DNA of 63,808 nucleotides, filler included, from Pirum gemmata (taxonomy: Eukaryota): assembly GCA_002812295.1 (NCBI GenBank). It is 10 parts of 10 records of this genome, joined end to end, with 100 filler letters (N's around TTAATTAATTAA, not from the genome) between each part and the next. Parts side by side here need not be neighbours in the genome. Positions count along the whole stretch, not along the records: positions 1 to 6,217 come from PDIN01000309.1; 9 more parts are not named here. One strand, given 5' to 3'. A program made the translations under genes and the position numbers. The notes beneath the pieces are model-generated. The model searched no databases and was not told the origin of the DNA. It was given only the letters and a program-made list of their open reading frames with translations. Positions 4,058-5,948 of the stretch are shown piece by piece (position 1 is the first letter of the stretch; every line of letters starts with the position of its first letter).

Positions 4058-4717
4058 ATGTTATGGGAGGAGCGCAAATTAGAACATGTTTTGTTGAGCG
4101 AACAACAGCTCCAAGAATTTATAGATGGGATGAAGCTTAAAGGAATGTCATTTGAAGAAAAAGGAATCACAAAAGAAGAAGTTTCTCTTTTAGAAAAAGA
4201 GTTAGGGCTTGTCTTCCCTCCCATTTATAAACAGTTTATTCAAGCTGCCCTCCCTACCTGGTCTTTGGCCTCGAAAGCATTGCAAAGCCTAAATGTTAAT
4301 GGAAATATCACAGAGGATATAAAAGAAAAGTTTAACGTCCCTGTCGCTTTTGAGACAGAAGAATATGAAGACTGGATTTGTACTTATATGGACCAAATCA
4401 AACCAGCTTGGGGCTGGGATGATATACCTGAAGATTACCAAACTAATAAAAAAAAGGCATGGGATTATTTGTCTGAAAAATGGCGACAGCAAAAAGTAAT
4501 TCGCCTTACGGAAGTTAAATTAGGATATTTAATCGCTAGCTCAATTCCTGGTCTACCTGTATTGTCTTTTGGTTTCCATATGGATGATGTACCTATTGTA
4601 AGCAGTGATTTTGTTTCGCATATGTGCGAAGTGAAAGGTATCCCTCCTGTGCGATCTGAATTACCAAGTGATGGTTTCCATCCTTCTGATATACCTTTTT
4701 GGGGAATTTTTCTTTAA
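4058..4717 (+). CDS. SMI1/KNR4 (SUKH superfamily) protein, 219 aa, intronless
   Basis: ATG at 4058; the upstream ORF extension is an (AACCGC)n repeat. GITKEEVSLLEKELGLVFPPIYKQFI is the SUKH N-terminal motif. YL...PVLS..D and the terminal IPFW resemble the actinobacterial/plant subgroup. Confidence 0.75.
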   Translation: MLWEERKLEHVLLSEQQLQEFIDGMKLKGMSFEEKGITKEEVSLLEKELGLVFPPIYKQFIQAALPTWSLASKALQSLNVNGNITEDIKEKFNVPVAFETEEYEDWICTYMDQIKPAWGWDDIPEDYQTNKKKAWDYLSEKWRQQKVIRLTEVKLGYLIASSIPGLPVLSFGFHMDDVPIVSSDFVSHMCEVKGIPPVRSELPSDGFHPSDIPFWGIFL

Positions 4718-5050
4718 TTAAAGACTTGTAGCTTTAGCTACGTCAAAAGAAAAAATAGATAAATAAACAGGAATTAGCAACCGGAAACCAAGTCACTGTT
4801 ATCAGTCAGTGCTGTAACCATTTTGTTCGTTTACAATATAATAAAAAGTTTTATTTTATTTTTATTTTGTACTTTTCATACCCTAACCCTTAACCCTCAC
4901 CCTTAACCCCGGTATACAAACAGAAACCAGAAACCAGAAACTGTTACCAGACAGTGTTTCTACTATGTTGTTCGTTTACAATACATACACACATGTACAC
5001 TTTCATACACATACTATAACTAATGGCATTCTTTTAATTAACCAGAATTA

Positions 5051-5476
5051 TCACGCAACGTGTTTTCCAGCTTGTTCTCCAGCTTGTTCTCCAGCTTGTT
5101 CTCCAGCTTGTTCTCCAGCTTGTTCTGCAGCTTGTTCAACCAAGTCCTCACCAGTGCTATCCGAAACTACAATTTTTTCATTAAATTCTGATACATATGT
5201 TTCAGAAAACTCTTTCGCCTTTCTTCGAATTTCTGGTAACTCCTCTGCTGGGCCTGTTGGAGCTAAATTGTCTAAAGCATCGGCTGCCCACCTAGATGAA
5301 TATCCTTCTGATCTAAGTTCGTCCATGTATTGTTGGACAGTTGCTTCAACTGTCTCTATGGATTCTTCAGTTACAGAATTGGAACCAACAGAGCGTCTTA
5401 TAATTTTTTCCATACTTTCCTCTGGTACATAAAGAATAGAGCTTGGATTCTTTGTAATAATTCGGCGCCTTTTCAA
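5051..5476 (-). CDS. Acidic helical ORF with EQAG repeats; probably a terminal exon, possibly of the RNase gene
   Basis: 141 stop-free codons with higher GC, preceded by a polypyrimidine tract and AG acceptors at 5483-5482 and 5470-5469. The second acceptor joins in frame to the donor at 5788. Confidence 0.55.
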   Translation of the reverse strand: MKRRRIITKNPSSILYVPEESMEKIIRRSVGSNSVTEESIETVEATVQQYMDELRSEGYSSRWAADALDNLAPTGPAEELPEIRRKAKEFSETYVSEFNEKIVVSDSTGEDLVEQAAEQAGEQAGEQAGEQAGEQAGKHVA

Positions 5477-5559
5477 ATAATCTATTTAAAGAAGCAAAAT
5501 AAAAAATAAAATAAACAAAATGCAACACACATAGAAATCACGAATATAACAAAAACGAA

Positions 5560-5745
5560 AATAACACAATAACACAATAATACAATAAAACAATAACACG
5601 ATAAAACAATAAAACAATAAAACAATAAAAAAATAAAACAATAAAACAATAAAACAATAAAACAATAAAACAATAAAACAATAAAACAAAAAGCAATAAA
5701 ACAATAAAACAATAAAACAATATCATAAAACAATAAAATAAAACA
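5560..5745. repeat. (AAAACAAT)n minisatellite
   Basis: Tandem 8-mer array, intronic or UTR. Confidence 0.85.
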
Positions 5746-5784
5746 GCAAAAAAATAATAATGTATTAATAATAGAAATTTTAAC

Positions 5785-5948
5785 TTACTCTGCTTGTGAT
5801 CGGAATGTATCTGTCCATGTTCGAGTCTCTTTATCCCACAACGTAAAAGAAAAATAATGGTCTGCGGTGTAAAATACGTCACCACTATTCGAAACAATTA
5901 GTCTTCTCGCTCCAGCGTTTGTGTCACCAGGTTTTATATAGGCAATTT
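5785..5948 (-). CDS. Microbial ribonuclease (RNase Sa/barnase, N1/T1 superfamily) domain exon; 5' part not resolved
   Basis: Manual translation: (E)IAYIKPGDTNAGARRLIVSNSGDVFYTADHYFSFTLWDKETRTWTDTFRSQAE*. This aligns with RNase Sa EYTVITPGARTRGTRRII...YYTGDHYATF. TAG acceptor immediately upstream; GTAAGT donor at 5788 overlaps the stop codon. Confidence 0.7.

Follow-up and report, generated by a model that had tools for sequence, protein, structure and literature searches.

The window, by which we mean the whole stretch of DNA analysed here (63,808 nucleotides from Pirum gemmata, filler included), is made up of contigs about 6-7 kb long, with nine 100-nt N linkers between them. Two convergent genes lie on the first contig: an open reading frame (ORF) of the SUKH (SMI1/KNR4) fold at 4058-4717 on the plus strand, and a gene with an RNase Sa/barnase-type domain on the minus strand. 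This contig ends at 6217 and is followed by a linker at 6218-6317; like those at the eight further sites, it is 100 nt long and holds a stop-in-all-frames word. Since the linkers join separate contigs, genes lying across a linker are not linked. Three sequencing runs, X1, X2 and X3 (none on record as RNA), contain 0.96, 0.60 and 0.60 of the words of 4058-5990, respectively.

A sequence-only reading of this DNA had described a SUKH gene facing an RNase exon on the same contig, and this arrangement was confirmed. The reading had also placed them about 1 kb apart. That figure holds only when the distance is taken from the first RNase exon to be recognized, exon A, which lies 1072 nt from the SUKH gene. 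For the whole genes, the distance from stop to stop is 333-649 nt, because a further exon of the RNase gene, missed in that reading, starts at 5481.

An exact 34-nt inverted copy of 5481-5514, the acceptor region of this further exon, is located at 3857-3890 (plus strand), upstream of the SUKH start. It carries little weight, as the window has many exact repeats of 24-54 nt. We considered whether the two copies could be transposon ends and rejected the idea: no target duplication was seen in the flanks, and such repeats are common. Short repeated non-coding motifs also surround both genes, at 3670-3717, 3804-3851, 4786-4838 and 4931-4983, and one of them recurs in the next contig at 6675-6692. 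Close to the last of these, at 6700-6750 (minus strand), we saw by eye a GGTTCGATCC word that resembles a polymerase III B-box and is possibly part of a tRNA-derived repeat.

Several other features were recognized in the window. The same contig carries, at 626-1435 (plus strand), an ORF that starts like a signal peptide and contains a PAN domain, a Pro/Thr linker and a cellulose-binding CBM1 domain of fungal type. The other contigs include a GH5 cellulase (15709-17097, minus strand), a GT92 glycosyltransferase (22902-24329, plus strand), a chitin synthase fragment (40396-41709, plus strand) and an SH3-SH2 tyrosine kinase most similar to CSK (49918-51489, minus strand). The kinase, the chitin synthase, the cellulase and the PAN/CBM1 protein together suggest that the DNA comes from a unicellular holozoan. 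An open frame of at least 637 residues at 34293-36206 (minus strand) has no Pfam match; it shows a hydrophobic stretch towards the N-terminus and a stalk rich in Thr, and two NPLY motifs come after a membrane helix at the C-terminus. Inverted repeats about 1.4 kb apart, at 29652-29778 and 31212-31340 (exact stretches of 26, 31 and 40 nt), resemble DNA transposon ends.

The RNase gene and its splicing

Exon A (5789-5948, minus strand) is 160 nt long. It codes for the C-terminal half of an RNase Sa/barnase-type domain and for some 17 residues more. A TAG acceptor at 5950-5949 precedes it, and the single frame that is open from its start reads IAYIKPGDTNAGARR...FYTADHY. The minus-strand exon with FYTADHY, proposed earlier at 5948-5785, is therefore real, and its end had to be corrected: the exon stops at 5789, where a GTAAGT donor follows at 5788.

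The family assignment of exon A, made in the same reading, agrees with Pfam, with the PDB chains and with a local profile. Exon A matched Pfam Ribonuclease (PF00545) with an E-value of 0.0018 and 19.2 bits, below the 24-bit cut-off. Against solved RNase Sa chains the best E-value was 0.00087, and 19 of the 20 chains listed were RNase Sa, Sa2 or Sa3. When the 1867 stop-free frames of the window were searched with a profile of 10 bacterial RNases, exon A was retrieved at E 5.6e-10, with the runner-up at 1.7; its score was 35.4 bits, compared with a maximum of 10.1 in 5000 shuffles. A codon-position model trained on 7 window ORFs, which was right in 48 of 50 leave-one-out cases at the length of exon A, gave the RNase frame +24.2 bits, versus -6.6 and -17.5 for the other frames. 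The best matches of the RNase domain are actinobacterial. A word-index search and pattern scans of genome-contig and viral-contig collections returned no match to exon A, and the plasmid and phage collections gave weak matches only.

Glu54, Arg65, Arg69, His85 and Tyr86 have roles in RNase Sa-type catalysis, Glu54 as the general base, His85 as the general acid and Arg65 in binding phosphate. Residues are numbered here as in RNase Sa, from the alignment with the solved chains. The C-terminal strands encoded by exon A, with G-x-x-R and Y-T-x-D-H-Y, carry the domain signature. Arg69 is present (Arg in 74/74 bacterial relatives), as are His85 (His in 73/74) and Tyr86 (Tyr in 74/74), and Asp84 is kept. 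Position 65, which is Arg in 72 of the 74, is Ala in exon A. The alignment thus bears out the earlier statement that Arg69 and His85 are retained while Arg65 is replaced by Ala. An Arg65Ala mutant of RNase Sa has reportedly lost roughly 1000-fold in activity. The two natural exceptions among the 74 relatives, L081 (Ala) and L125 (Val), read A/V-G-P-Q-R at this site, so that Arg65 is not absolute. L081 is located at 1512-2102 of its locus, and L125 (1-1737) forms the tip of a haemagglutinin-repeat frame of 3013 codons; both are accompanied by barstar. Sequencing error in exon A was ruled out, as X1 and X3 cover it without differences where they reach.

The codon split by the intron upstream of exon A is N+AA, with its first base off the contig. 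The column to which it belongs is Glu54 in 74/74 bacterial relatives, and because of this register the split codon likely encodes Glu54. The proposed splitting of a Glu codon by an intron is likely on this register. The Glu read directly from the upstream sequence is not exonic, since that reading includes the last G of the intron. As a predictor of the split codon, the base preceding GT-donor-like motifs in the window proved too crude a proxy. The upstream intron (5949-6217, minus strand) is cut by the contig end, and the exon or exons for the first half of the RNase domain, with its N-terminal helix and guanine-binding loop, lie outside the window, as would any delivery or secretion domain N-terminal to it. 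A six-frame search of the window found no second RNase match and no N-terminal half of the domain, in line with the earlier remark that the upstream exon is not resolved: the 5' half of the domain lies beyond 6217. A mini-exon from an ATG at 6127 was rejected for being in the wrong phase for the RNase frame, and no fitting mini-exon was found.

Downstream, a 307-nt GT-AG intron (5788-5482, minus strand; 16% GC) is removed by splicing. It runs from GTAAGT to TTTAAATAG and has an 8-nt tandem repeat inside. The junction rests on one X3 contig of 152 nt (depth 3.2; run type not on record), which agrees with 5922-5789 at every position and then carries 18 letters that match 5481-5464 exactly. X1 reads on from exon A into the intron. 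X2 has no contig on 5765-6140, which carries no weight. The spliced join in X3 confirms that the RNase gene is intronised.

The junction sets the start of exon B (5051-5481, minus strand), while stop positions and the codon model define the rest. Read across the observed splice, the RNase frame reaches a stop at 5367, 37 residues past the split codon. Another frame of exon B stays open for 143 codons, to 5051; it is acidic, ends in a 12-nt EQAG repeat and scores +68.4 bits in the codon model. When the non-repeat part was shuffled 20,000 times, a frame as open as this one arose in 6 cases. Over roughly its first 50 nt, exon B does not clearly favour either frame. The observed splice therefore leaves a coding-like frame out of register with the RNase frame. 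A second possible acceptor (AAG, 5470-5469), 13 nt downstream of the observed one, is in phase with the long frame; its pyrimidine tract is weaker (0.55 vs 0.77), and the X3 contig contains only the 5481 junction. This suggests that either the second acceptor is also used or the frame broke early in exon B, and that the tail of the RNase gene is likely decaying or alternatively spliced.

Exon B belongs to no family found above cut-off in Pfam or found in NCBIfam, the atlas or plasmids, and its Met-started 120-residue ORF is absent from the protein collection. A metagenome match (L093) was rejected as resting on the EQAG repeat, and the idea of a barstar-like remnant was dropped when no match was obtained. 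Single-sequence fold prediction at the locus was uninformative (pLDDT 40).

Set beside the known pair of RNase Sa/barnase (PF00545) and barstar (PF01337), the window gene shares G-x-x-R, Y-T-x-D-H-Y, Arg69, His85, Tyr86 and the Glu54 register. In contrast to that system, it is eukaryotic and has introns, Ala65, a C-terminal extension and no adjoining barstar. Table 2 of PMC3482391 lists Tox-Barnase from bacteria and euryarchaea and, within that table, from no eukaryotes.

The SUKH gene and its relatives

The ORF at 4058-4717 (plus strand) is a single exon encoding 219 residues, and its exact sequence is present in EukProt. Its match to Pfam SMI1_KNR4 is weak on its own (E 0.0022, 19 bits; cut-off 25.4), so that structure was needed to confirm the assignment. 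Its neighbours in the atlas are bacterial clusters (0.93-0.95), several of them named SMI1/KNR4. It scored 34.2 bits against a profile built without the query, and 18 of 28 aligned sequences of its clade match PF09346 at E 0.01 or below. AlphaFold2 with the clade alignment gave a model with pLDDT 77 and pTM 0.75. The best VIA-align match of this model was YobK (Z 7.4, rmsd 3.6, 124 aligned), and the best 8 of 48,161 chains (Z 7.4-4.4) were YobK, BF1740, Knr4, FBXO3, Syd and three uncharacterised proteins. Foldseek ranked 2ICG and Knr4 first, with no E-value below 0.001. Each VIA-align Z is middling, yet both methods rank the same family first. YobK, BF1740, Knr4, FBXO3 and Syd are all named as SUKH members in the available text of PMC3113570 and PMC3482391. 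Thus the SUKH call of the earlier reading stands, on profiles (Pfam under its cut-off) together with the predicted fold.

The window copy has diverged from its relatives. A word-index search with the protein found only itself, and a search of 1.84 billion representatives returned three relatives (E 6e-7 to 7e-5, 28-31% identity), the best being a protein of the dinoflagellate Pfiesteria. A profile search added 23 proteins, bacterial ones and one from Effrenium among them, and one cluster has an MMETSP member. The clade motif PxLIPIYxHR, with its nearly invariant P-I-x-x-H-R, is lost from the window copy. A count of this motif in bacterial loci (63/77) was left unused as circular, those loci having been found by that motif. 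The window's SUKH clade may be the clade of plant At3g50340.

In a 55-row C20 tree, the window SUKH sits on a very long branch and its placement is not fixed. A 28-row LG+G4 tree, built from a chosen subset that leaves out P0029 and other long rows, groups it with 7 sequences, eukaryote-linked ones among them (support 95/88). The group holds the Pfiesteria protein, an MMETSP-linked protein and ubiquitin-like fusions. The SUKH gene likely derives from a branch that other microbial eukaryotes already carry. One branch of the clade (P0002, P0004, P0010, P0011 and P0029) has an N-terminal extension and dinoflagellate members. The extension of P0010 matches ubiquitin (E 0.0004), and a ubiquitin-like-SUKH fusion in that branch is possible; no such fusion is described in the text consulted.

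Sporadic transfers of SUKH-1 (Smi1/Knr4) to eukaryotes, such as plant At3g50340 and fungal F-box-SUKH-4, as presented in the available text of PMC3113570, share with the window gene the fold and the occurrence of a stand-alone, bacteria-related SUKH in a eukaryote. They differ in that the window copy belongs to a bacterial/dinoflagellate clade, some members of which have ubiquitin-like N-termini, and has lost the clade motif.

Linkage of the two families in bacteria

The sequence-only reading had called the two genes a toxin/antidote module, proposed conserved linkage of orthologues as a check, and added that the canonical inhibitor of the RNase family is barstar. The remark on barstar was borne out. 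In 36 of 45 bacterial RNase loci (Pfam), the gene next to the RNase is barstar, and with Bacillota added barstar lies within the locus in 64 of 74 (local profile); the other 10 have no barstar within about 1.5 kb. In the section of Zhang et al. 2012 available (PMC3482391), Imm-Barstar is the sole listed partner of Tox-Barnase. Near the window RNase there was no barstar-like match, the best one (E 0.065) lying on another contig.

The window's SUKH clade occurred in 0/74 of these RNase loci, as seen by a profile that detects this clade only, and Pfam found no SUKH family among 53 scanned ORFs downstream of RNases. From the other side, GTDB genomes contain at least 529 loci of the SUKH clade; we read the best 80 of them, including up to 4 kb of flanking sequence. 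These best 80 of 529 contained no RNase Sa/barnase (10,362 frames; best E 3.6) and no barstar (best E 1.3). A PF00545 gene is present somewhere in 8 of 50 of these genomes, outside the SUKH loci. Going by family names, no toxin or toxin-delivery Pfam family was seen in the nearest upstream ORF at 76 of the 80 loci or among 90 further same-strand neighbours. The neighbours are varied housekeeping genes, and 37/76 upstream ORFs and 34/90 neighbours (71/166) lack any Pfam family; these could include unrecognised toxins. The clade thus looks toxin-free in bacteria, and the check on linkage, made in bacteria, gave none: 0/80 SUKH loci (the best of 529) and 0/74 RNase loci.

In six related Psychrobacter-type loci (L043, L052, L056, L057, L059 and L061), the SUKH-clade gene lies two genes downstream of RtcB, and in a Pseudomonas locus (L015:3454-4011) it overlaps the end of a Tpt1/KptA 2'-phosphotransferase gene. 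There is a weak hint in this gene content that the bacterial clade may have a role in recovery from RNA damage.

A pairing of SUKH and RNase is possible in principle, since SUKH proteins neutralise some RNases. According to the text available, SUKH proteins bind diverse nucleases (PMC3113570), and YobK, a SUKH protein, neutralises the RNase toxin YobL (PMC6562991). EndoU, which shares the fold of the barnase-type RNases, is listed with Imm-SUKH (PMC3482391, in part). The word 'barnase' is absent from the main text of the SUKH paper (PMC3113570). The Bacillus subtilis YobL/YobK system, an LXG RNase toxin with a SUKH antitoxin, shows that neutralising an RNase toxin is within the reach of a SUKH protein, and YobK is the best structural match of the window SUKH. 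Unlike the window locus, where none of these features was seen, YobL is described in the consulted text of PMC6562991 as most likely HNH-fold, co-transcribed with its antitoxin and equipped with a secretion domain.

In toxin-immunity operons the immunity gene lies downstream of the toxin, as stated in the available text of PMC3417536. The window genes converge and so lack this same-strand order, which rules out a preserved toxin-immunity operon. A complex prediction for SUKH with exon A gave a score of 0.00; it used half a domain and no alignments, with the fold of the partner uncertain, and counts neither way. Taken together, the absence of the pairing in 80 and 74 bacterial loci, the barstar partner, the convergent layout, the loss of Arg65 and the tail out of frame leave the toxin/antidote module unsupported.

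Probable separate acquisition and its rivals

The bacterial affinity of both domains, as judged from sequence, is supported, and this part of the proposed laterally acquired module stands; a joint module does not. As the bacterial relatives of the two genes were not found together, they are likely separate borrowings rather than a poison-antidote pair. We hypothesize that two separately acquired genes have become neighbours without being partners, a reading we hold to be probable, with appreciable room for doubt. A point against it is that two conflict domains of bacterial type lie strikingly close, within about 1 kb of each other; the fast change of the SUKH copy could also be adaptation to a new partner.

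Under separate acquisition, the RNase gene would encode a larger multi-exon protein with a barnase-type domain. The predicted domain would keep the Glu/His acid-base pair and would thus cut RNA the barnase way, by 2'-OH attack and through a cyclic phosphate. Its activity would likely be weak because Arg65 is missing, and its tail would likely be decaying or alternatively spliced. Some activity may nevertheless be retained, judging by the conserved Arg69, Asp84, His85 and Tyr86 and by the toxin tip L125, which also lacks Arg65. The SUKH protein would likely be an orphan protein-binding module, either a scavenger of incoming bacterial toxins or an adaptor. This role is likely by analogy with other sporadic eukaryotic SUKH genes and with PoNi. 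The available part of PMC3113570 describes eukaryotes that sporadically acquired SUKH genes without toxins. PoNi of anaerobic gut fungi, as presented in the accessible text of bioRxiv 10.1101/2020.10.15.341461, is likewise a bacterial immunity gene kept by a eukaryote and is proposed as a guard against bacterial attack; it belongs to another family than SUKH and has >70% identity to its donor, versus about 30% for the window SUKH.

The foremost rival, which we nonetheless consider unlikely, is a foreign block transferred in one piece from a symbiont, a virus or an orphan-cassette island and then rearranged, so that both genes would be non-cognate remnants and the RNase gene would be becoming a pseudogene. 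The exact 34-nt inverted repeat brackets the SUKH gene and exon B, exon B has a frame conflict, and conserved residues are lost in both proteins. However, repeats of such size are common in the window, and the RNase matches are actinobacterial while the SUKH groups with eukaryote-associated copies. Host-like codon use in both genes, together with at least 2 introns in the RNase gene, points to long residence.

Next comes a fully active secreted or effector nuclease, serving RNA feeding or attack on bacteria, that would need no antidote, with an acidic tail made through the second acceptor and an unrelated SUKH gene. The core residues are kept, natural relatives without Arg65 exist (one of them a toxin tip), and in 10/74 bacterial RNase loci no barstar lies within about 1.5 kb. 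In exon B, the long frame is coding-like and has an in-phase AAG acceptor. Yet the sole observed junction uses the other acceptor, Arg65 is nearly invariant, and the N-terminus, hence any signal peptide, lies outside the window. We regard this reading as improbable.

Lower again we place the reading that the two genes form a working pair of toxin and antidote, with the SUKH protein binding and blocking the RNase domain in place of barstar. What speaks for it is that both genes adjoin on one contig, that SUKH proteins bind diverse nucleases including RNases (YobK/YobL; PMC3113570 and PMC6562991, in part), that no barstar-like match lies near the RNase in the window and that the SUKH copy diverges fast. 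In addition, X2 and X3 each contain 0.60 of the words of 4058-5990, about the exon share of both genes, although this is a word count only. Such a pair is without bacterial precedent from either side, and its SUKH clade looks toxin-free in bacteria. The orientation is convergent, Arg65 is lost, the tail is out of frame in the sole observed splice, and the SUKH protein has its nearest kin in other eukaryotes, where some are fusions with ubiquitin-like domains. These points make it doubtful. Least probable of all is a toxin-antidote locus built by the eukaryote itself from bacterial parts that were not found paired in bacteria, an RNase Sa-type toxin gene with introns and a fast-evolving SUKH protein doing the job of barstar, with a frame-switching splice choice tuning the tail.

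In the literature we found no report of a eukaryotic barnase-type RNase or of its pairing with SUKH, among mostly non-subscription papers and outside the Zhang supplements, which may hold more eukaryotic members. The locus places a bacterial-type (Sa/barnase) RNase domain in a spliced gene. The host is likely a unicellular holozoan, and this group is unlisted for Tox-Barnase in the available part of PMC3482391. The locus also adds another sporadic SUKH of eukaryotes, from a clade that, in bacteria, looks free of toxins. Should the two genes work as a pair, they would form a protein toxin-antidote locus of a kind rare in nuclear genomes, put together from bacterial parts, and would include a SUKH inhibitor of a barnase-type enzyme, of which we found no report. 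Both genes belong to known families, and the locus modestly enlarges the set of conflict genes that microbial eukaryotes have borrowed.
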